From an uncultured Candidatus Actinomarina sp. (GTDB taxonomy: Bacteria; Actinomycetota; Acidimicrobiia; Actinomarinales; Actinomarinaceae), in assembly GCA_902533795.1 (NCBI GenBank), contig CACAND010000001.1:10159-74158 (forward strand): a stretch of DNA of 64,000 nucleotides. Reading direction: 5' to 3'. The notes beneath the pieces are model-generated. The model was given only the letters and a program-made list of their open reading frames with translations, was not told where the DNA came from and ran no database searches. This document shows positions 7,811 through 50,811 of this stretch, one piece after another; position 1 is the first letter of the stretch, and every line of letters starts with the position of its first letter. Made by a program: the position numbers and the translations under genes.

Positions 7811-7823
7811 TGCATTTTATTAT

Positions 7824-8163
7824 AGTGGAGGTGCGGGGAGTCGAACCCCGGTCCTTTTAAGCTACCAAACAGCTTCTCCGAGCGCATCTGGTGAAATACT
7901 ATTGAGAGAGTCACCAGAAACAAATTCTCAATAGTTTTTACCTTAAATCTTAAAAGTTAGTCGGTAAACTAACTCAGCATCCCACATTTCGACGCCGATA
8001 CTACCCGAGGTGGGAACCCCGGCAGTCGACGAGCAACAATTAAGCTGCTACGGCCAATTTAGGTTTGGCAGTTATCTTTTTTTCCCTACGTTTTTAATGA
8101 GGCCCTAGGACCCTCAGCTCGCTACTGAGAGGCTCGCTTCAAAGTCGAAGCCAGTTCACCCCC
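7824..8163 (-). ncRNA. ssrA: tmRNA (SsrA)
   Basis: 5' end GGGGGTGAACTGGCTTCGAC... (reverse complement at 8163) and 3' end ...CGGGGTTCGACTCCCCGCACCTCCA (reverse complement near 7826) form a tRNA-Ala-like acceptor stem with a G3:U70 wobble and a T-arm GGTTCGACTCC. An internal tag frame ...AKPKLAVAA-UAA has its stop at 8040-8042 on the + coordinates. CCA is only partly encoded. Ends are approximate. Confidence 0.8.
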
Positions 8164-9307: not shown

Positions 9308-9871
9308 ATGGCATTTATAAAATTATTTAATTTTGATGAGGCATCTGGCTTACTGAAAAAAGAATATGAAAAAGGATTACGAAGAGCTGGAAGAATTTGG
9401 AATGTTCTCACTATACAGTCACAGACTCCTCACATTCTGAAGGATTCAATGAATTTATATGGTTCTACAATGTTTGGAGATTCAAATATTTCTCGATTCG
9501 ATAGTGAGTTACTTGCTGTTGTAACATCTATGTCGAATGAGTGTGAATATTGAATAAGAGCACATTTATTTGATCTCCGGTCGGAGACAACAAATCAAAA
9601 GTTAGTTGATGAAATAGCGGAGGATTGGAGTACAAGTTCATTAACAAAAACTCAAATGGCAATGTGTAACTTTGCAAAAAAACTTACAGAAACACCAAGT
9701 AAAGTTAATGAAAATGATATTCAAACATTACGAGATCTGAATTTGACTGACAAAGATATATCTCAAATTGTTCAAATAATTGGTTATTTTAATTATATAA
9801 ACAGGGTTGCAGATGGTTTAGGACTTGAACCTGAAAATTTTATTGATAAAAAAGGGTATAAAACGAAATAA
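9308..9871 (+). CDS. AhpD-like / carboxymuconolactone decarboxylase-family peroxidase-related protein, candidate selenoprotein (UGA 9551..9553 decoded as Sec)
   Basis: Two track ORFs (9308..9553 and 9656..9871) are in the same frame, separated only by TGA at 9551-9553. The continuous translation reads ...VVTSMSNECEY-U-IRAHLFDL..., so the UGA falls at the second Cys of the conserved N-x-C-x-Y-C-x-x-x-H AhpD core motif. The downstream part (NFAKKLTETPSKVNENDIQTLRDLNLTDKDISQIVQIIGYFNYINRVADGLG) matches the C-terminal half of the same family. Confidence 0.55.
9569..9599 (+). promoter_or_regulatory. candidate bacterial SECIS hairpin downstream of the in-frame UGA
   Basis: TTTGAT-CTCC-[GGTC loop]-GGAG-(ACAACAA bulge)-ATCAAA. 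The lower stem TTTGAT/ATCAAA and upper stem CTCC/GGAG enclose an apical loop with GU. The hairpin starts 15 nt after the UGA. Confidence 0.35.
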
Positions 9872-12634: not shown

Positions 12635-12895
12635 TTATAAAGAATTAATTTTATTTGTAAGTTCAACATCTGATGGTTCAACCAAAAAGCTTCCATCCTC
12701 AAAGACTATAGTTGGGATTCGTGGATTTTGATTTTGAATTTTTTTTGCTATTTCGAATCCTCTTTTGTCATAATCAATATCAACTTCTGTAAAAGCTATA
12801 CCTAATTTATCAAAAACTTTTTTTGACCTTACACAGTCTCCACACCACTGTGTGGTGTACATGACAATTTTTGGTTGATTATCCATTTGAACCAA
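12635..12895 (-). CDS. glutaredoxin-like small redox protein (CGDC active site)
   Basis: 86 aa. YTTQWCGDCVRSK is a thioredoxin-fold CxxC motif. Its size and context resemble NrdH/mycoredoxin-like proteins. Confidence 0.6.
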   Translation of the reverse strand: MVQMDNQPKIVMYTTQWCGDCVRSKKVFDKLGIAFTEVDIDYDKRGFEIAKKIQNQNPRIPTIVFEDGSFLVEPSDVELTNKINSL

Positions 12896-13141: not shown

Positions 13142-13453
13142 TTAACCTAGTGCGTCAATTTTTTCTTTAATGACTTCTTTTGGTTGAACTCCAACAAATC
13201 TCTCTTTAACTTCACCATCTTTTAAGATCACAACTGTTGGAACCCCCATTACTTGATTTTGTCCCGCAATTTGTGGATGTTGATCAACATCTAGTTTTAC
13301 AAATTCAACACCATCTATCTCATCATTCAATTCTTCTAATATTGGACTCAATACTTTACAAGGTCCACACCAAGTGGCATGAAAATCAATAACCACCGGA
13401 GTTGGGGAGTTAATAATTTCAGCATATTCTTCAGCATTTATTTCTTTTACCAT
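13142..13453 (-). CDS. trxA: thioredoxin
   Basis: 103 aa with the WCGPC active site. Confidence 0.85.
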   Translation of the reverse strand: MVKEINAEEYAEIINSPTPVVIDFHATWCGPCKVLSPILEELNDEIDGVEFVKLDVDQHPQIAGQNQVMGVPTVVILKDGEVKERFVGVQPKEVIKEKIDALG

Positions 13454-16198: not shown

Positions 16199-16876
16199 CT
16201 AGATATATCTTCCCTGATCTACATCACTCATTAATTTTCCATCTTTTAATTGCAAAACTCTTTTTTTTCTTCTATTTACAATCGAAGAATCATGAGTAGC
16301 CATTAGTACGGTTGTTCCAGCCCTATTTATTTTTTCTAACAGAGTAAGTATTTGAATGCTTAAATCTGGGTCTAAATTACCTGTAGGTTCATCACATAAA
16401 AGTAACAAGGGATTTGAAGCTAAAGCTCTAGCTATGCAAGCTCTTGTTTGTTCTCCGCCTGAAAGCTGACTAGGAAATTTGTACATACTTTCTTGTAAAT
16501 CTACAAGATCAATAAGGGTGCTTGCTTTTTCATCAATTTCTTTTTCATCAAATCCGAGTACTTCAAGAGCAAAACAAACATTTTCAAAAGTTGTTCTGTC
16601 TTCTAATAATTGTGGTTCTTGCGTAACAATTCCTAATTTTCTTCTTAATAAAGGTATTTTCCATTTTGGTAAAGTTGTTACATCCATTTCAACAACTTCA
16701 ATTTCTCCTTTTGTGGCTAAGTAATCTTTGTATAAAAGCTTAAGTAAAGATGATTTTCCACTTCCAGAATGACCAATCAAATAAACAAATTCTCCTTCTG
16801 AAATTTCAGTTGAAACATTTGAAAGCGCAACACTTCCACCTTCAAAAACTAACGAAACATTGTCTAATTTAATCAT
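16199..16876 (-). CDS. ftsE: cell division ATP-binding protein FtsE
   Basis: 225 aa. Walker A GHSGSGKSS, signature LSGGEQTR and Walker B LLLCDEPTGNLD. Confidence 0.9.
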   Translation of the reverse strand: MIKLDNVSLVFEGGSVALSNVSTEISEGEFVYLIGHSGSGKSSLLKLLYKDYLATKGEIEVVEMDVTTLPKWKIPLLRRKLGIVTQEPQLLEDRTTFENVCFALEVLGFDEKEIDEKASTLIDLVDLQESMYKFPSQLSGGEQTRACIARALASNPLLLLCDEPTGNLDPDLSIQILTLLEKINRAGTTVLMATHDSSIVNRRKKRVLQLKDGKLMSDVDQGRYI

Positions 16877-17973
16877 TTAATCCCTGTCTACGCCATTTTA
16901 GATACTCATTAATAAATATGTTAATATCTCCATCTAAAACTGATTGAATGTTTCCAACTTCAATGTTTGTTCTTGAATCTTTCACTTGTTGGTAAGGTTG
17001 CATTACATAAGACCTAATTTGTCTGCCCCATCCTGCTTCAACTTGTTCACCTCTAATTGAATCAAGTTTTTTCATTTTTTCTTCTCTCTCTAGAATTATA
17101 AGTTTTGATTTTAAAAGACTCAATGCTCTTACTTTATTTTGTAATTGTGATCTCTCTGCCTGACAAGCAACAACAATTCCAGATGGAATATGAGTTACTC
17201 TTACAGCAGAGTCAGTTGTATTGACATGTTGACCTCCAGCGCCGGATGATCTGTAAACATCGATTCTTATGTCATCATCATTAAGGTCTAGATCTTCGGA
17301 GTCTTCAATTAAAGGGATCACATCTACACCAGCAAAACTAGTATGTCTTCTTTTGTTGCTGTCAAAAGGACTAATTCTAACTAAACGATGTACTCCCCTT
17401 TCACTTTCTAAATTTGCATAGGCTCTAAAATTTTCTACTCTTATCGAGGCTGATTTAATTCCAGCCTCTTCACCTGATGAAATTTCTTCGATTTCATAAC
17501 TCATTTTTTTATCATCTAAATATCTTGTATACATCCTAAGTAGCATTTCAGCCCAATCATGGGCATCAACACCGCCAGCACCTGCATTAACAGTTAATAC
17601 AGCTGAATGATCATCAAACTCACTTGAATACAAAGATTCCTCTTCTAAATCAATAATTTTTTGTTCAACTTCATCAAATTGAGGTTTTATTTCTTCTAAT
17701 TCAGATAGATTGTCTTTGCTCAATACAGTCAATTCTTCAAGGTCTTTAATTTCGCTATCTAAAATATTTAATAGATTTATTACTTTTTCTAGGTTTGAGG
17801 CACTTTTAACAATATTTTGAGCATTAGGATTTTCCGACCAGAAATTTTCTTTAGAGATTATTTTATTAAGATTTTGAAGATCTTCTTTTTTATTGTCAAA
17901 GTCAAAGATACTCCTTGGCAGAAGAAAGTCTTTTTTGAAATAATGCTAATTTATTTGTGAGCTCTTTGAACAT
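16869..17973 (-). CDS. prfB: peptide chain release factor 2, expressed via programmed +1 ribosomal frameshift: join(17973..17905, 17903..16869) on the minus strand
   Basis: The track ORF (287 aa) holds the RF2 GGQ (SGAGGQHVNTTDSAVR) and SPF (ISPFD) motifs but lacks the N-terminus. Upstream in the -1 frame lies ATG (17973) MFKELTNKLALFQKRLSSAKEYL, ending at CTT TGA C preceded by AAGGAG. The reconstructed protein is about 367 aa. Confidence 0.85.
17901..17916 (-). promoter_or_regulatory. prfB autoregulatory +1 frameshift site (SD-like AAGGAG, spacer TAT, CTT TGA C)
   Basis: Minus-strand sequence AAGGAGTATCTTTGAC. It matches the canonical RF2 recoding site exactly: an internal Shine-Dalgarno 3 nt upstream of the CUU-UGA-C slippery/stop context. 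Confidence 0.85.
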
Positions 17974-44497: not shown

Positions 44498-46195
44498 TTA
44501 AATAGAGGCAAAGGAATCTTTTGCGTGATAAGAAGATCTTACAAGTGGGCCAGATTCAATATGCGGGATACCTAGCTCTTGACCAATAATTTTGTATTCT
44601 TCAAATTCTTCTTTAGGTGCATATCTATGGATAGGTCTGTGCCTTTGTGTAGGTCTTAAATACTGCCCGATTGTTACAATATCAATATCAATTTGAGATA
44701 AATCTTTTAAAACTGAAACTACTTCCTCAAACTCTTCACCCATTCCTAAAATTAAGCCTGTTTTCGTCTTGCCAAGAAAGTGAGAATCTTTTGCATATTG
44801 AAGCAAAGAAAGTGATCGTCCATATGAAGCTGCAGTTCTTATTTCTCTTTGTAATCTTGGGACCGTCTCAAGATTGTGGTTTAATACTTCTGGATTTGCA
44901 TTTATTATGTTATCTATCGCACCTCTATCTCCTTTAAAGTCAGGTACTAATACTTCAACTGAAGTTTGAGGATTCATATACTTAACTTCATCTATTGTTT
45001 TTGCGAAGAAATTTGAACCACCATCCTGTAGGTCATCTCTATTGACTGAGGTAATCACTGCATGAGTAAGCCCCATAATTTTTACACTTTCAGCAACTCT
45101 ATATGGCTCATCCATATCAAGAACTGTGGGTTTACCAGTATTTACATCACAAAATCCACAGGCTCTTGTACATGTTTCACCCATAATCATAAATGTTGCA
45201 GTGCCCATCGACCAACATTCGTAGATATTTGGACATGAAGCTTCTTCACAAACTGTATTCAATCTTTTTTCTTTAATCAAACTTTTGAGTGATAGATAAT
45301 CTTTTCCTAAGTTTGCTTTAACCTTCATCCATTCGGGTCTCGCAGGTTCATTTATTATTCTTGGTTCGGTAGAAACCGAACATTCGGGTCTTTCGAGTTC
45401 ATTTTTAGTGGTTTGGTTAATAGTCAATGAAATTCCATTCTTTGAAGAATCAAAAACACCTTTTTCAACTAGTTTATCAATGTCAAATTCCTTTTTTTTC
45501 TTCAGCTGTCGTGGTGTAAATTGTGCAAATTGTTCATCAACTTTTTTATATTCAAATATTTCTAAAAACTTTTTTGAAATTATATCGGTTACTTCTTTAA
45601 ATGAAATATCCTTGTCATAATTTTGAATTGCGACAATTCTTTCTTCACTGTCACCACAGGGATTTATGAAATCGTAACCTTTCGTATTATCTGTAATATT
45701 TAATGAAAAGCCGTGAAATGTAGTCCATTTGCTAACCTTAATTCCAATTGATGCTATTTTTCCATCTTTTGTCCAAACACCTGTATCGTCATGTTTTGAG
45801 AAAGCACAAATTGAAAATGTTGATAATGTATCGATTATGACTTTCTCAATTTTTCTAACAAACGGAATTACTTTTTTTGGATCATCTAATCTAATTATTG
45901 GATACCCAATTAATTGTCCATCCCCATGAAAAGTAATGTCACCTCCTCTATCGGTTTCATAAAATTCAATATTATTTTTATTTAATGTATCTTCGGAAAC
46001 TAAAAGATTATTCTTATCGCCTGATCTTCCAATAGTTATTACATTGTTATGTTCTAGTAAAAGCAAGTAATCATAATTAGATTTCTCAGAGCTTATTGAT
46101 GAATGCAGTCCTTTTTGAAGATCAATTGCTTCTTTATATGGAAGTTTTCCCAGCCATCTAATATTTAATTCTCTCAAGATATTTCCTGAGACCAA
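44498..46195 (-). CDS. lipBA: fused octanoyltransferase LipB / lipoyl synthase LipA
   Basis: 565 aa. The N-terminal approx 220 aa carry LipB motifs (ETDRGGDITFHGDGQLIGYPI; catalytic-type FINPCG). The C-terminal approx 320 aa carry the LipA radical-SAM motif CTRACGFC and the auxiliary cluster CEEASCPNIYEC. Confidence 0.8.
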   Translation of the reverse strand: MVSGNILRELNIRWLGKLPYKEAIDLQKGLHSSISSEKSNYDYLLLLEHNNVITIGRSGDKNNLLVSEDTLNKNNIEFYETDRGGDITFHGDGQLIGYPIIRLDDPKKVIPFVRKIEKVIIDTLSTFSICAFSKHDDTGVWTKDGKIASIGIKVSKWTTFHGFSLNITDNTKGYDFINPCGDSEERIVAIQNYDKDISFKEVTDIISKKFLEIFEYKKVDEQFAQFTPRQLKKKKEFDIDKLVEKGVFDSSKNGISLTINQTTKNELERPECSVSTEPRIINEPARPEWMKVKANLGKDYLSLKSLIKEKRLNTVCEEASCPNIYECWSMGTATFMIMGETCTRACGFCDVNTGKPTVLDMDEPYRVAESVKIMGLTHAVITSVNRDDLQDGGSNFFAKTIDEVKYMNPQTSVEVLVPDFKGDRGAIDNIINANPEVLNHNLETVPRLQREIRTAASYGRSLSLLQYAKDSHFLGKTKTGLILGMGEEFEEVVSVLKDLSQIDIDIVTIGQYLRPTQRHRPIHRYAPKEEFEEYKIIGQELGIPHIESGPLVRSSYHAKDSFASI

Positions 46196-47436
46196 TCGGT
46201 ACTTTCAATTCTTGTTTTAATTGAATTTAAAAATAACAAAGCAGTAGAACCATCAAAAACTCTATGATCCCATGTCAAACTCAGTATCCCAATATGCCTA
46301 ATTGAAATTGAATCTGATCCATCTTCTATCTCAATCACAACTGGACGCTTTTTCACTGATTCCGTTGAAAGAATAGCAACGTTTGGTTGATTGATTATTG
46401 GTGATGTTAAAAATGAATTGAAGGATCCATTGTTTGATATCGTAAATGTACTCCCCGACACATCGTCTAGGTTGTAACTTCCATCTCTAAGAAGAGCTGA
46501 AATCTCAGATATCTTTCTAGCCGTGCCAGTAAGATTATAAGAATCAGCCTCCTTTATTGTTCCAACAAGTAATCCCTCTTGGTTTATGTCGACTGCAATA
46601 CCCAATTGAATATTCTCGTGAATCAAATGAACATTTTTATCTAAATCAAAAGAGCTATTAACAACAGGAAATTCTCTTAAAGCGCTAACTACAGCTTTTG
46701 CAATGAATGGAAGATATGTAAGTGAAAAATTGTTTTCATTTTTAAAATTATCTTTAACTTTACTTCTTAAATTCTCTACGTTTTCAAAATCAACTTCAAC
46801 TGAAGTCATTACATGCGCAGAAGTTTGCTTTGAGTGAATCATGTTTTCAGCAATTTTCTTACGTAATCTAGGTATCTCGCCTGTATTTGTTGACTTATTA
46901 TTATCAGCAACTTCCTTCGGTTTTTGGTGACCATTATTTAAATACTTATCTATATCTTTTCTTGTAACTCGACCATCTTTTCCTGTGCCAGTAACTTGAA
47001 GTAGATCTATATTATTTTCTGAGGCAAGTTTTCTTACGACAGGTGAGACTTTGCCCAAGGCTTGAGTACTTTGTATAGTTTTGCTTTCAGTTACAGTCTG
47101 TTCATTTTCAAAAATTTCTTGAGCCGGTTCTTCTGTTTTTTCTATTTTGTCTTCTTGTTCTACTGATTGAGTTGCTTCAGCATTTAAGTTTTTGGTAGAA
47201 GTTCCGCCTAACTCTAATAATGGAGATCCTACTTCAACTGTCTCACCCTCTTCAACTAATAAAGCAGAAACAGTTCCGTTAAAGGGGCTAGGCACTTCAG
47301 TATCAACCTTATCGGTTGAAATTTCTAAGATTGGATCGTCTTCTTTAATTTCATCACCAACTTTTACAAGCCAGCGCAAAATAGTTCCCTCAGTAACAGT
47401 TTCTCCTAGTTGTGGCATTGTTATGCGTTCACTCAT
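46174..47436 (-). CDS. dihydrolipoamide acyltransferase (E2) of a 2-oxoacid dehydrogenase complex
   Basis: 420 aa. N-terminal lipoyl domain (EISTDKVDTEVPSP). Linker and PSBD (SPVVRKLASENNIDL). C-terminal catalytic domain with DHRVFDG. Confidence 0.85.
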   Translation of the reverse strand: MSERITMPQLGETVTEGTILRWLVKVGDEIKEDDPILEISTDKVDTEVPSPFNGTVSALLVEEGETVEVGSPLLELGGTSTKNLNAEATQSVEQEDKIEKTEEPAQEIFENEQTVTESKTIQSTQALGKVSPVVRKLASENNIDLLQVTGTGKDGRVTRKDIDKYLNNGHQKPKEVADNNKSTNTGEIPRLRKKIAENMIHSKQTSAHVMTSVEVDFENVENLRSKVKDNFKNENNFSLTYLPFIAKAVVSALREFPVVNSSFDLDKNVHLIHENIQLGIAVDINQEGLLVGTIKEADSYNLTGTARKISEISALLRDGSYNLDDVSGSTFTISNNGSFNSFLTSPIINQPNVAILSTESVKKRPVVIEIEDGSDSISIRHIGILSLTWDHRVFDGSTALLFLNSIKTRIESTDWSQEIS

Positions 47437-47440
47437 AATT

Positions 47441-49447
47441 TTATTGTAATTCTTTTATGGCATTTACAACTTTTTGAACACTTGGAATAAATGCATCTTC
47501 AAGCACTGGTGCGAAAGGAATATGTGTATTTGGTGATGTTATTTTTATAATTGGATTGTCTAGATCCCAAAATCCTTTCTCAGCAATTAGAGATGATATT
47601 TCTGAAGCTACAGATGAGAAAGGGACATCTTCTTGTAAAATACATACATTTGACGTCTTCGCTACAGATTTCAATATAATTTCTTCATCTAATGGGACTA
47701 TCGTTCTTATGTCCACAATTTCAACTGAAATATCTTCTTTTTCAAGAATGTTTGCTGCTTCTTCAGCAACAGAAACCATTCCTGACCAGGTAACAATTGT
47801 TACATCCGAACCTTCTTTGACTATTCTACCTTTACCAATTTCCACTTCATATAACCCAATTGGAACATCCATTTTTAAGTCTGGTTTTCTATAAAGTTTT
47901 TTATGTTCAAGATACATAACAGGATTTGGATCATTAACAGCTGCAACAAGTAGCCCTTTTGCATCATATGGGTTTGATGGAGCAACAACTTTTATACCCG
48001 GATGGTGTGCAAGTAATGACTCTGGGCTAATTGAATGAAAAGGTCCCGAACGTGTACCAGCACCAGTTGGACCTCTCACAACCATTGGAACAGCTTTGCC
48101 AGCTTTCCAATGATATTTTGCTGCTTCAGTAGTTAATTGATCAAGTGCGGGATACACAAAATCATAAAATTGTAACTCAACAATTGGTTTTTGGCCAGCT
48201 AAAGCAGCTCCCACTGCCGCACCTGTGAAGCCACCTTCTGAAATTGCTGTGTCTATAACTCTAAATGGACCATATTTTTCAAAAAGCCCTTTTGTTGCTT
48301 TGAATGCCCCTTCGAAAACACCTACATCTTCTCCCATAATGAAAACACTTTCATCCTTTTTCATCAATTCATCTAGTCCATTATTTAAGGCTTCTATAAA
48401 GTTCATTGTTTGTAAATTATTTTCTTTATTTTCAATTACAGGGATAGTTCTCTTAGCGAACATATCATTTAATTCATCTTTTGGATCTGGCTCCTCTTGG
48501 GTTTTAGCCCACTCAAGAGTTTCCTTTATTTCAGTTTCTAAATCACTTTCTAATTGAATAAAATCATCCTCACTAAACAATCCTTCAGTTAAAAGGGAAT
48601 CTTCAAATCTTGCAATCGGGTCTCTTTTCATCCAGAAATCTCTTACTTCATCTTCAACATAATCTGCAGGATCATGACCAGCGTGTCCATAATGTCTAAA
48701 AGTAACTAATTCGATTAAGGTTGGACCTTTACCTTTTCTAGCATTTTCGCATGCCTCATGGATTGAATCAATAACGTCATAGATATCATTACCATCAATA
48801 ATTAATGACGGAATACCATAACCTGCTCCTCTATCTGCAACATTTGGTGTCCCAAACTCAGTTTCATTGGGTGATGAATAGGCAAATTGATTATTTTGAA
48901 CTGTAAAGACAACTGGTAAATTTAATACTCCAGCCATGTTTACACTTTCATGCCATGTGCCTGTCGCAGTAGCACCTTCTCCACAATTAGCTATAGCAAC
49001 CACTCCACTTCCCTGTTGTTGTGATGCAAGCGCCCAACCAACTGCAACTGGTGCTGAGTCAGGTAATGGAGATACAACCATCAAGGTCCCCTTGTCAACT
49101 ACACCAAAGTGACTATTACCATCTCGTCCTTTTGAAGGTCCGTCTTTTTTTCCAAAAAAATTAAGTGCAACTTCTTTTAGTGTTACCCCTTTCATTAATT
49201 GAACTCCAAGATCTCTATGAGTGCCGCCAAAAATATCTTTGTCATCCATTCCAGCACCAATACCAGCCATAGAGGCTTCTTGCCCTATACCTGGATATAC
49301 AGCTCCACTCAGTTGTCCCCCTTTATACATTTTTAATAATCTGTCTTCAAGAAGTCTTTGAGTTTTCATAGACTTATAAATTTCCCATAACTGCTCATTA
49401 GAAAGTTCTGATGAATATCCTTTTCTAACAATCTTTTCAATTTGCAT
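47441..49447 (-). CDS. 2-oxoacid dehydrogenase E1 component with fused alpha and beta subunits (TPP-dependent)
   Basis: 668 aa. The N-terminal half has the E1-alpha TPP-binding region (GEGATATGTWHESVNMA...). The C-terminal half is E1-beta-like (VFIMGEDVGVFEGAFKATKGL...FRVIDTAISEGGFTGAA). Confidence 0.8.
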   Translation of the reverse strand: MQIEKIVRKGYSSELSNEQLWEIYKSMKTQRLLEDRLLKMYKGGQLSGAVYPGIGQEASMAGIGAGMDDKDIFGGTHRDLGVQLMKGVTLKEVALNFFGKKDGPSKGRDGNSHFGVVDKGTLMVVSPLPDSAPVAVGWALASQQQGSGVVAIANCGEGATATGTWHESVNMAGVLNLPVVFTVQNNQFAYSSPNETEFGTPNVADRGAGYGIPSLIIDGNDIYDVIDSIHEACENARKGKGPTLIELVTFRHYGHAGHDPADYVEDEVRDFWMKRDPIARFEDSLLTEGLFSEDDFIQLESDLETEIKETLEWAKTQEEPDPKDELNDMFAKRTIPVIENKENNLQTMNFIEALNNGLDELMKKDESVFIMGEDVGVFEGAFKATKGLFEKYGPFRVIDTAISEGGFTGAAVGAALAGQKPIVELQFYDFVYPALDQLTTEAAKYHWKAGKAVPMVVRGPTGAGTRSGPFHSISPESLLAHHPGIKVVAPSNPYDAKGLLVAAVNDPNPVMYLEHKKLYRKPDLKMDVPIGLYEVEIGKGRIVKEGSDVTIVTWSGMVSVAEEAANILEKEDISVEIVDIRTIVPLDEEIILKSVAKTSNVCILQEDVPFSSVASEISSLIAEKGFWDLDNPIIKITSPNTHIPFAPVLEDAFIPSVQKVVNAIKELQ

Positions 49448-50811
49448 TAATGTAATCCTTTCCCAGTTAAGCCAAGTAACGATTCGCCAACTGCCTCGCT
49501 TAATGTTGGATGTGCATGAATAAATTCTGCTGCCTCTTCTGGCAAAGCTTCCCAGCCAACCATATACATTATTTCATGTATCATTTCTCCAGCTGAAGGA
49601 CCACATATACTTGCTCCAACTATTGGGCCTTCTTTTTCTGAATAAACTTTTACTAGTCCTTGATTTTGCTCAGTAATCATTGCTCTTCCAATGCCAGCAA
49701 AGCTATGTTGTGATTGATCAATTTCGATATCATTTAACTTTGCTTTTTCAACATTTAAACCAACCTCTGCGAGTTCCGGCCTTGTATAAACAACATATGG
49801 GATAGCATTGTAATCAAGTGGCTTCTTGTCACCAGTTGCAATAAATGTGACCGCAGAAATTGATTCTGCAAATGCTGCATGAGCTAATTGAGGTGTGTTA
49901 GCGACAATATCTCCTAAAGCAAAAATATTTTCTTCTGAAGTTTGAAACGTTTCTAGGTCAACATTTATAAAACCATTTTCAGTAACAATATTTACATTGT
50001 CCAATCCAATATTTTCAGTCAACGGTGATCTACCAATAGCAACCAAAACAGAATCATATTCTTTAGTTTCGTTATCTGAAAAACTAACTTGTTTGTCATC
50101 TATCTTTTCAATTGAAGTATTTAATTTAAATTCGACTCCTCGTTTTGAAAGCTGTTTTCTTAACTCACCAGATGTTCTTTTATCTAATCCTGGAAGGATC
50201 TCTTTGGCAATCTCTACAACTGTAACTTCTGAACCAAGATCATTAAGCAAGCTTGCAAATTCACAACCAATTGCACCGGCACCAACAATACAAACTCTTT
50301 TGGGTGGCTCTTCCCAATTAAGAGCAGTGTCTGATGTAACTATAAAGTTTTCATCTATTTTAATATCAGGCAGCTCTCTTGGTTTAGAGCCTGTAGCAAG
50401 GAGGATATAATCACTTTCTACTTTTTCAGTTGAGCCATCAGATTTATTTACTAAAACGGTATTTTTATTTTCAATGGAACCCCAGCCTTCAATAACTTTT
50501 ACTTTTTTACCCTTTAAAAGTGTCTTAATTCCAGAAACTAGTTTATCAATTACCTCAATTCTTTTTAATGAGGTTTTTTTCCAATCAATTGTTTTATTTT
50601 CAATATTTATTCCATAGTTGCTAGAGTTGGAAATTTCATGATTTATCTCAGCAACATGAAGCCAATATTTTGCAGGAATACAGCCACGATTTAAACAAGT
50701 CCCCCCTAAAACATCGGATTCAATTAAGGTAATTTCTAGATCAAAGTTGTGAGCATATAATGCTGCGGCATAACCAGCTGGGCCACCGCCAATAATTGTT
50801 AATTTTTTCAA
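49447..50811 (-). CDS. lpd: dihydrolipoyl dehydrogenase (E3)
   Basis: 454 aa. Redox-active disulfide GGTCLNRGCIPAK, FAD and NAD Rossmann motifs, C-terminal HAHPTLSE. Confidence 0.9.
   Translation of the reverse strand: MKKLTIIGGGPAGYAAALYAHNFDLEITLIESDVLGGTCLNRGCIPAKYWLHVAEINHEISNSSNYGINIENKTIDWKKTSLKRIEVIDKLVSGIKTLLKGKKVKVIEGWGSIENKNTVLVNKSDGSTEKVESDYILLATGSKPRELPDIKIDENFIVTSDTALNWEEPPKRVCIVGAGAIGCEFASLLNDLGSEVTVVEIAKEILPGLDKRTSGELRKQLSKRGVEFKLNTSIEKIDDKQVSFSDNETKEYDSVLVAIGRSPLTENIGLDNVNIVTENGFINVDLETFQTSEENIFALGDIVANTPQLAHAAFAESISAVTFIATGDKKPLDYNAIPYVVYTRPELAEVGLNVEKAKLNDIEIDQSQHSFAGIGRAMITEQNQGLVKVYSEKEGPIVGASICGPSAGEMIHEIMYMVGWEALPEEAAEFIHAHPTLSEAVGESLLGLTGKGLH

Follow-up and report, generated by a model that had tools for sequence, protein, structure and literature searches.

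We analysed a stretch of 64,000 nucleotides (the window) from an uncultured Candidatus Actinomarina sp. (assembly GCA_902533795.1, contig CACAND010000001.1), and found in it a 187-codon gene for an AhpD-like oxidoreductase with the carboxymuconolactone decarboxylase (CMD) fold, in which a single in-frame UGA stands at the position of a catalytic cysteine. From the comparison of this gene with its relatives we infer that the UGA is very probably decoded as selenocysteine (Sec), giving a 187-residue protein. Coordinates of the gene, of its key codons, of the hairpin that follows the UGA and of other genes discussed below are listed in Table 1.

A standard listing of open reading frames (ORFs) splits the gene into two same-frame ORFs, 9308..9553 and 9656..9871, and translation through the internal stop gives a frame that is otherwise open until its terminal TAA. 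The read-through product (with U replaced by C) matches the NCBIfam family TIGR01926, "peroxidase-related enzyme", with 133 bits (curated cut-off: 81.8 bits) over residues 4–176 and profile positions 3–176 of 178, and it also matches Pfam CMD (PF02627) with 27.8 bits (threshold: 23). Because the product matches TIGR01926 nearly end to end and carries the CMD match as well, the two ORFs are the halves of one gene, which belongs to the AhpD-like/peroxidase-related family. Locally the translation reads ...SMSNECEY-[UGA]-IRAHLFDLRSE..., where N77, C79, the UGA (U82) and H86 fall on the N-x-C-x-x-C-x-x-x-H core of the family and the UGA takes the place of the second Cys. Glu67, which lies twelve residues N-terminal to Cys79, is invariant in the family alignments, like H86. 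The initial annotation, made from the letters of the window, had read the two ORFs as one frame and one 187-codon gene with the TGA as its sole stop before TAA, had assigned the product to the AhpD/CMD type, and had placed the UGA at the second Cys of the core motif. All three readings hold; Cys is indeed found at this position in four homologous loci with a TGC codon and in the solved structures 3c1l and 6k40.

Homologous loci were collected in two scans, one of species-representative genomes (80 loci) and one of metagenome contigs (80 more loci), and the aligned codon was read in the DNA. TGA is present in 152 of 156 loci and TGC in the other four; four further loci, missed by the pattern reading, likewise carry TGA, and one locus (L080) was unreadable at the site and is excluded from the codon count. 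Conservation on this scale puts the in-frame TGA far beyond chance. The taxonomic labels of the loci span at least six phyla: Actinomycetota (in part given as Acidimicrobiia), Chloroflexota, Acidobacteriota, Gemmatimonadota, Latescibacterota and Planctomycetota. The four TGC loci (L044 and L081–L083) have the motif T-x-x-C, in which Thr replaces the first Cys and the sole Cys kept is the one equivalent to Sec. The metagenome scan, which was seeded with Cys forms, gave just three additional Cys forms; the other loci read at the site are putative Sec forms. The closest loci (68–84% identity) come from single-amplified genomes (SAGs) and metagenome-assembled genomes (MAGs) of Candidatus Actinomarina/OCS155. 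All 18 distinct Actinomarina-type genes have TGA at the codon, a MAFI... start, 104–108 open codons past the TGA, and a TAA or TAG end, and the choice between TGY and TGA in orthologues, to which the initial annotation had pointed, falls to TGA in every one of them.

The sequence past the UGA evolves like coding sequence. Among the 18 Actinomarina-type genes, the mean pairwise differences per site at codon positions 1/2/3 are 0.13/0.03/0.41 upstream of the UGA, 0.29/0.15/0.41 in codons 14–34 past the UGA (before the internal ATG at 9656), and 0.24/0.15/0.45 further downstream. H86, D89 and E93, all encoded between the TGA and this ATG, are invariant across the family. By this measure the frame past the UGA, including the stretch that would be skipped by a restart at ATG 9656, appears to be under purifying selection as protein.

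Beyond the protein, the DNA just past the UGA is constrained at synonymous sites. A hairpin core begins 20 nt past the UGA, where pairing of UCUCC with GGAGA gives a stem of 5 bp. All five pairs form in 18/18 Actinomarina-type genes, including two with a CUU variant that retains a G-U pair. The codons of the hairpin in these genes are GAU, CUC (16 genes) or CUU (2 genes), CGG, UCG and GAG, and the next Thr codon is ACA in 16 of the 18. In the long ORFs of the window, from which codon usage was taken (the genome has 32% G+C), CUC accounts for 3.7% of Leu codons, CGG for 1.4% of Arg, UCG for 3.9% of Ser and GAG for 20.9% of Glu; the joint probability of the codon run, given the amino acids and this usage, is about 4e-6. 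The codons for Arg and Leu that lie shortly before the hairpin vary freely, and third-position divergence is 0.22 over the 13 codons past the UGA, as compared to 0.41–0.45 elsewhere in the gene. The initial annotation had drawn the core (CUCC-GGUC-GGAG, with G in the apical loop) within a bulged outer stem. The core survives the comparison, loop G included (18/18), and the outer stem (UUUGAU/AUCAAA, with a 7-nt bulge) had to be given up, with pair 20-48 formed in 1/18 and pair 23-45 in 8/18 orthologues.

In the other phyla, the same place is occupied by a helix of 7 bp (CGACCUC/GAGGUCG) whose loop has 6 nt, C-G-(G/U)-N-N-N, and across groups the stem starts 17–20 nt past the UGA. Leu is encoded by CUC in 129 of 131 non-Actinomarina Sec forms, and the Leu three codons upstream has mixed codons. 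Pair 24-37 of this helix is C-G in 51 sequences, U-A in 17 and U-G in four; the helix as a whole is 81% paired, as compared to 32–47% with the partner columns slid, and G29 in the loop is at least 90% conserved (79 sequences). The hairpin of the Cys form L044 is weaker (−5.2 versus −11.3 kcal/mol). These patterns point to selection on the RNA beyond the needs of the protein, as expected of a bacterial SECIS (selenocysteine insertion sequence), and by analogy we regard the hairpin as a SECIS-like element, with SelB binding predicted. Like the E. coli fdhF prototype, it is a stem-loop within the gene, shortly after the UGA, and its small apical loop contains G and U (GGUC here). Its stem, of 5 bp in Actinomarina and of 7 bp in the other phyla, is shorter than that of the prototype, and a bulged U is not apparent.

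We note that an Acidobacteria-type subgroup (L046, L065, L070, L072, L075, L077 and L079) no longer has the 3' arm GAGGUC found elsewhere. Its hairpin is a shifted one, CACGGGGAG-GAU-CUCCGUG (12–32 nt past the UGA; −10.6 kcal/mol, z = −3.4), in which GGGGAG codons further upstream serve as the partner of the re-used CUCCG segment. In this subgroup the SECIS appears to have been remodelled with the UGA retained.

Sequence homologues in the PDB (3c1l, 6k40, 2oyo, 2pfx and 2prr) have E-values of 1e-19 to 1e-22, and their CxxC aligns with C79/U82. As a structural model we used the AlphaFold model of a database orthologue with 91% identity (P0001), which carries W at the Sec site. The model (pLDDT 89.6) is all-helical with nine helices, one of which (residues 80–92) starts at the motif. 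According to Foldseek, its TM-scores are 0.85–0.87 to 2prr, 2pfx, 6k40 and 2oyo, and 0.81–0.87 over the solved homologues. The window protein thus shares full-length homology, a common fold and a His in register with the Cys-form structures DR1765 (6k40), Mlr4105 (3c1l), 2oyo, 2pfx and 2prr; it differs from them in the replacement of Cys by the putative Sec and in overall sequence (24–31% identity), and none of them has a defined substrate or reductant. E67, C79, U82 and H86 are spaced 12/3/4, so that the Glu...C-x-x-C-x-x-x-H constellation is present. We take this spacing to be that of Glu118, Cys130, Cys133 and His137 in M. tuberculosis AhpD, another CMD-fold protein. The nucleophile of M. 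tuberculosis AhpD is its second Cys, Cys133.

Some functional information is available for DR1765. As related in PMC8945050 (citing Zhao et al. 2020), D. radiodurans lacking DR1765 is sensitive to H2O2, and resistance is restored partly by wild-type DR1765 and much less by variants mutated at both cysteines of the CxxC.

With these data, a mechanism can be proposed. By analogy with Sec decoding in other bacteria, SelB loaded with Sec-tRNA(Sec) would bind the small hairpin with the GGUC loop once the ribosome arrives at the UGA, and in this way would outcompete RF2 there. The product would carry a redox motif, Cys79-x-x-Sec82-x-x-x-His86, where a helix begins, Glu67 preceding it by twelve residues, and its chemistry would be that of the family. 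The selenolate of Sec82 would be the nucleophile that attacks a hydroperoxide or an oxidised partner of the peroxiredoxin type, and Cys79 would resolve the intermediate, leaving a Se-S bond within the molecule for a thiol system to re-reduce.

The most likely reductant, judged by analogy, would be the dihydrolipoyl arm of the E2 component of a 2-oxoacid dehydrogenase, recycled by Lpd. This donor is suggested because in a sister clade, of Acidimicrobiia type, the AhpD-like gene lies just downstream of a lipoyl-E2 gene on the same strand. Such adjacency (E2 end within 450 nt upstream) is found in 50 of the 132 loci with enough upstream sequence, the E2-adjacent loci being L011, L013, L015, L020–L022, L024, L028, L044 and L083–L136. 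The gap between the two genes is 2–12 nt in 46 of the 50 adjacent loci and 26, 54, 303 and 341 nt in the others; the E2 gene is preceded by one for E1-beta (Pfam), and two Cys forms are among the 50 loci. The pair echoes the lipoyl-E2 link of the M. tuberculosis route from Lpd through lipoyl-DlaT to AhpD. A literature search found no report of an E2/AhpD-like operon. The window has its own cluster at 44498..50811 (-), assigned partly by eye and containing a LipB-LipA fusion, E2, fused E1 alpha-beta and Lpd genes. Actinomarina appears to have lost the E2 adjacency.

Several observations weigh against the assignment of this gene as a Sec-containing, peroxide-related enzyme driven by lipoyl-E2. 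First, the Cys-form control consists of four loci only, probably of one clade. Second, the hairpin in Actinomarina is a short one of 5 bp (−6.2 kcal/mol), its stem lies further from the UGA than the 11 nt of the minimal fdhF element, and protein coding and G+C content are partial confounders of its covariation. It is also not significantly more stable than shuffled sequences (76 nt: z = 0.03; 18-nt core: z = −1.5) and is without an Rfam family, a scan of the window at gathering thresholds having given the tmRNA only. Neither excess stability nor a match to a curated RNA family is strictly required of a short bacterial SECIS. Because the region past the UGA is indistinguishable from shuffles, folding energy was dropped as an argument, and the reality of the hairpin rests on the comparison between genes, not on energy.

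Third, a tRNA search of the window found no tRNA-Sec (tmRNA only), the same kind of search in 60 related loci found no tRNA-Sec either, and no SelA, SelB or SelD was recognised by eye among the 56 window ORFs of at least 120 aa; the lack of Sec genes in 64 kb of a genome of ~1.1 Mb is uninformative. A preprint reports selC, selA, selD and a divergent selB in 84/84 complete Actinomarina genomes, with no selenouridine synthase and about five predicted selenoproteins per genome, mostly termed uncharacterised; AhpD, CMD and alkylhydroperoxidase go unmentioned in it (bioRxiv 10.64898/2026.04.03.716425). For the source genome, the presence of Sec machinery is predicted from this non-peer-reviewed preprint on related genomes. 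Fourth, a peroxide-related function is suggested by the family name and by distant homologues (24–31% identity to the solved structures), and M. tuberculosis AhpD is a remote structural relative only (Foldseek TM 0.52–0.56 and 8% identity to 1knc, 1gu9, 1lw1 and 1me5). No AhpC or Prx was found among the nine neighbouring window genes scanned, so that ahpC is not beside the gene, and E2 is not adjacent either; the E1-E2-Lpd genes of the window are 36 kb from the gene.

Among the alternatives, the most probable, which we still consider rather unlikely, is that the protein is a selenoprotein with another reductive chemistry, for example reductive dehalogenation or the specific reduction of a disulfide or sulfenate tied to the maintenance of lipoyl enzymes. 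Foldseek matches the model to the tetrabromopyrrole debrominase Bmp8 (6ohj/6ohi) with TM 0.79–0.81, a reminder that the CMD fold also houses Cys enzymes other than peroxidases. Bmp8 shares just 14–15% identity with the protein. The label "peroxidase-related" is merely an annotation, the neighbours scanned include no ahpC or prx, and the tight coupling with E1-beta/E2 in the sister clade also fits protection or repair of the lipoyl complex. Speaking for peroxide chemistry are the Glu-Cys-Cys/Sec-His spacing of 12, 3 and 4, presumably that of M. tuberculosis AhpD, and the nearest studied homologue, DR1765, which affects H2O2 tolerance via its CxxC as far as the account quoted above goes.

A second alternative, which we regard as improbable, is that the UGA is translated into another amino acid (Trp, Gly or Cys), by way of a reassigned code or of near-cognate read-through. 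UGA reassignment is known from small, A+T-rich genomes, the type to which this one belongs, and dozens of database proteins show W at the site (entries P0001–P0036, P0052, P0055 and P0062 have Trp at the Sec position). The DNA, however, is TGA, as read at L161–L163, and these loci translated under table 11 do not give the database protein; the W in public records stems from gene calling on short A+T-rich contigs under a code in which TGA means Trp. Trp at the Sec site in public records is thus a systematic mis-annotation of the catalytic residue. As the initial annotation had stated, UGA is an ordinary stop elsewhere in the window and RF2 is encoded there. The 43 window ORFs of at least 200 aa end in TAA (28), TGA (10) or TAG (5), with ksgA and tatD among those ending in TGA. 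The RF2 gene, prfB, has the classic UGA-dependent autoregulatory frameshift: ORF0 (23 codons, 17973..17902 on the minus strand, overlapping the 3' end of secA) encodes MFKELTNKLALFQKRLSSAKEYL and then reaches a UGA, at an SD-like AAGGAG followed by UAU CUU UGA C, and the main frame runs on to 16869. RF2 thus presumably reads UGA in Actinomarina, as the frameshift indicates. Since TGA ends 10 of the 43 long ORFs and RF2 with its UGA frameshift is present, reassignment of UGA is excluded. In addition, phyla with high G+C and the standard code share the TGA, and the homologous residue is the catalytic Cys, which makes the hallmark Sec/Cys pair. A variant, in which the Sec machinery partially inserts Cys under selenium limitation, is conceivable. 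We also note that the prfB frameshift is a second UGA recoding event within the window, and that a scan of its unassigned space for further genes with an in-frame TGA gave none credible.

It is even less probable that the UGA is a true stop, in a split gene or pseudogene whose product would be an N-terminal fragment of 81 residues, alone or together with a C-terminal piece separately initiated at ATG 9656. Such a reading agrees with standard ORF calling, with the use of UGA as a stop elsewhere in the window and with the Sec machinery not being seen in the window; it would, however, cut the active-site motif in half. H86, D89 and E93, which are invariant, lie in the 34 codons from the TGA to ATG 9656, a stretch with the coding pattern described above, and none of the 152 loci that retain the TGA across phyla has another lesion. 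Besides a genome without selABCD and tRNA-Sec, a point to which only the preprint speaks, the initial annotation had named two ways in which its proposal could fail, a pseudogene (with a sense codon in all orthologues and other lesions in this copy) and a read error; relatives conserve both the TGA and the downstream frame, which speaks against the first. As to the second, a sequencing or assembly error that turned TGY into TGA in the window is refuted: the codon is one base from a Cys codon, but TGA stands there in 18/18 Actinomarina-type genes, which were assembled independently, and in 134 further genes.

Table 1. Features of the window discussed in the text (positions in the 64,000-nt window)
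Feature	Position	Strand	Remarks
AhpD-like (TIGR01926) putative selenoprotein gene	9308..9871	+	187 codons including one UGA (predicted Sec82); TAA 9869..9871
Cys79 codon TGT	9542..9544	+	First residue of CxxU; presumed resolving thiol; C in 152/156 loci
In-frame UGA, probably read as Sec82	9551..9553	+	Falls on the second CxxC cysteine of the solved homologues
His86 codon CAT	9563..9565	+	Four residues past the putative Sec in C-x-x-U-x-x-x-H; invariant column (two alignments)
Hairpin core UCUCC-GGUC-GGAGA	9574..9587	+	5-bp stem, GGUC tetraloop, within codons Asp-Leu-Arg-Ser-Glu-Thr
prfB (RF2)	16869..17973	-	Programmed +1 frameshift; site 17910..17901
E2	46174..47436	-	BLAST to sister-clade E2; 30% identity to L014 E2
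Fused E1 alpha-beta	47441..49447	-	E1-beta part by BLAST (tblastn/BLASTP) to sister-clade E1-beta; 38% identity
Lpd	49447..50811	-	Assigned by eye

The gene order around the AhpD-like gene is ABC transporter, FAD oxidoreductase, tmRNA, hypothetical, PNPOx-like (opposite strand), AhpD-like, DUF3152 and 2-hydroxyacid dehydrogenase, and this order is retained in the Actinomarina/OCS155 SAGs and MAGs. The AhpD-like gene is divergent from the PNPOx-like gene, and a glutaredoxin-like gene at 12635..12895 and a thioredoxin gene at 13142..13453 lie about 3 kb off, in line with the PPOX/F420-class neighbour and the nearby redox genes first noticed. The tmRNA gene (7823..8163, minus strand; tag AKPKLAVAA) is 1.1 kb upstream of the putative selenoprotein gene, and its position is conserved in 10/10 Actinomarina loci, with the tags AKPKLAVAA, AKPKLALAA and AKPKLAIAA. 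In Chloroflexota-type loci (L029, L031, L034, L035, L043, L045, L048, L052, L061, L063 and L064), the next gene on the same strand is Ada-like (AraC-HTH plus O6-methylguanine methyltransferase).

AhpD-like selenoproteins with CxxU (COG2128) were discovered in Sargasso Sea data in 2005, with 27 sequences and a predicted SECIS (PMC1088965), and in the GOS survey "AhpD-like 1", with 299 sequences, ranked fourth in abundance among the selenoprotein families (PMC2398784). An "AhpD-like protein, TIGR01926, CxxU" is listed in a 2026 review (PMC13188914), and the AhpD-like family can be browsed in BSepDB (PMC13326102). The window gene shares with this family the HMM family, the motif, the UGA position, the small hairpin with G in its loop and the marine origin, and nothing essential differs; at the sequence level it is a member in every respect. 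The finding brings no new mechanism and no new family, since earlier work had described the family as well as the lineage's Sec trait. What it adds is small: the assignment of the gene to Actinomarina as a syntenic core gene, the freezing of synonymous sites in the SECIS, and the E2 adjacency in the sister clade. The Sargasso and GOS studies left their marine AhpD-like sequences without an organism, and the window gene is placed in Candidatus Actinomarina; the Sargasso sequences of 2005 may accordingly be from Actinomarina. A Sargasso (AACY) origin of the NCBI homologues was considered and rejected, the records being from other marine assemblies (prefixes CEVE and CESM).

With this gene, one of the "uncharacterised" selenoproteins of Actinomarina, which is among the most abundant and streamlined marine bacteria, gains a name and a plausible role. 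The gene is also an annotation trap, which standard callers either split or render with Trp at the catalytic site, and a case in which a selenoprotein called from sequence only has been borne out. Lipoyl-E2 with Lpd is indicated as a testable electron donor. More tentatively, and as a possibility rather than an expectation, much of the abundant and taxonomically unassigned marine "AhpD-like 1" signal may be attributable to Actinomarinales, and the AhpD-like protein may be a selenol reductase/peroxidase driven by lipoyl-E2/Lpd, an oxidative-stress selenoenzyme that would justify keeping a whole Sec pathway in a genome of ~1.1 Mb.

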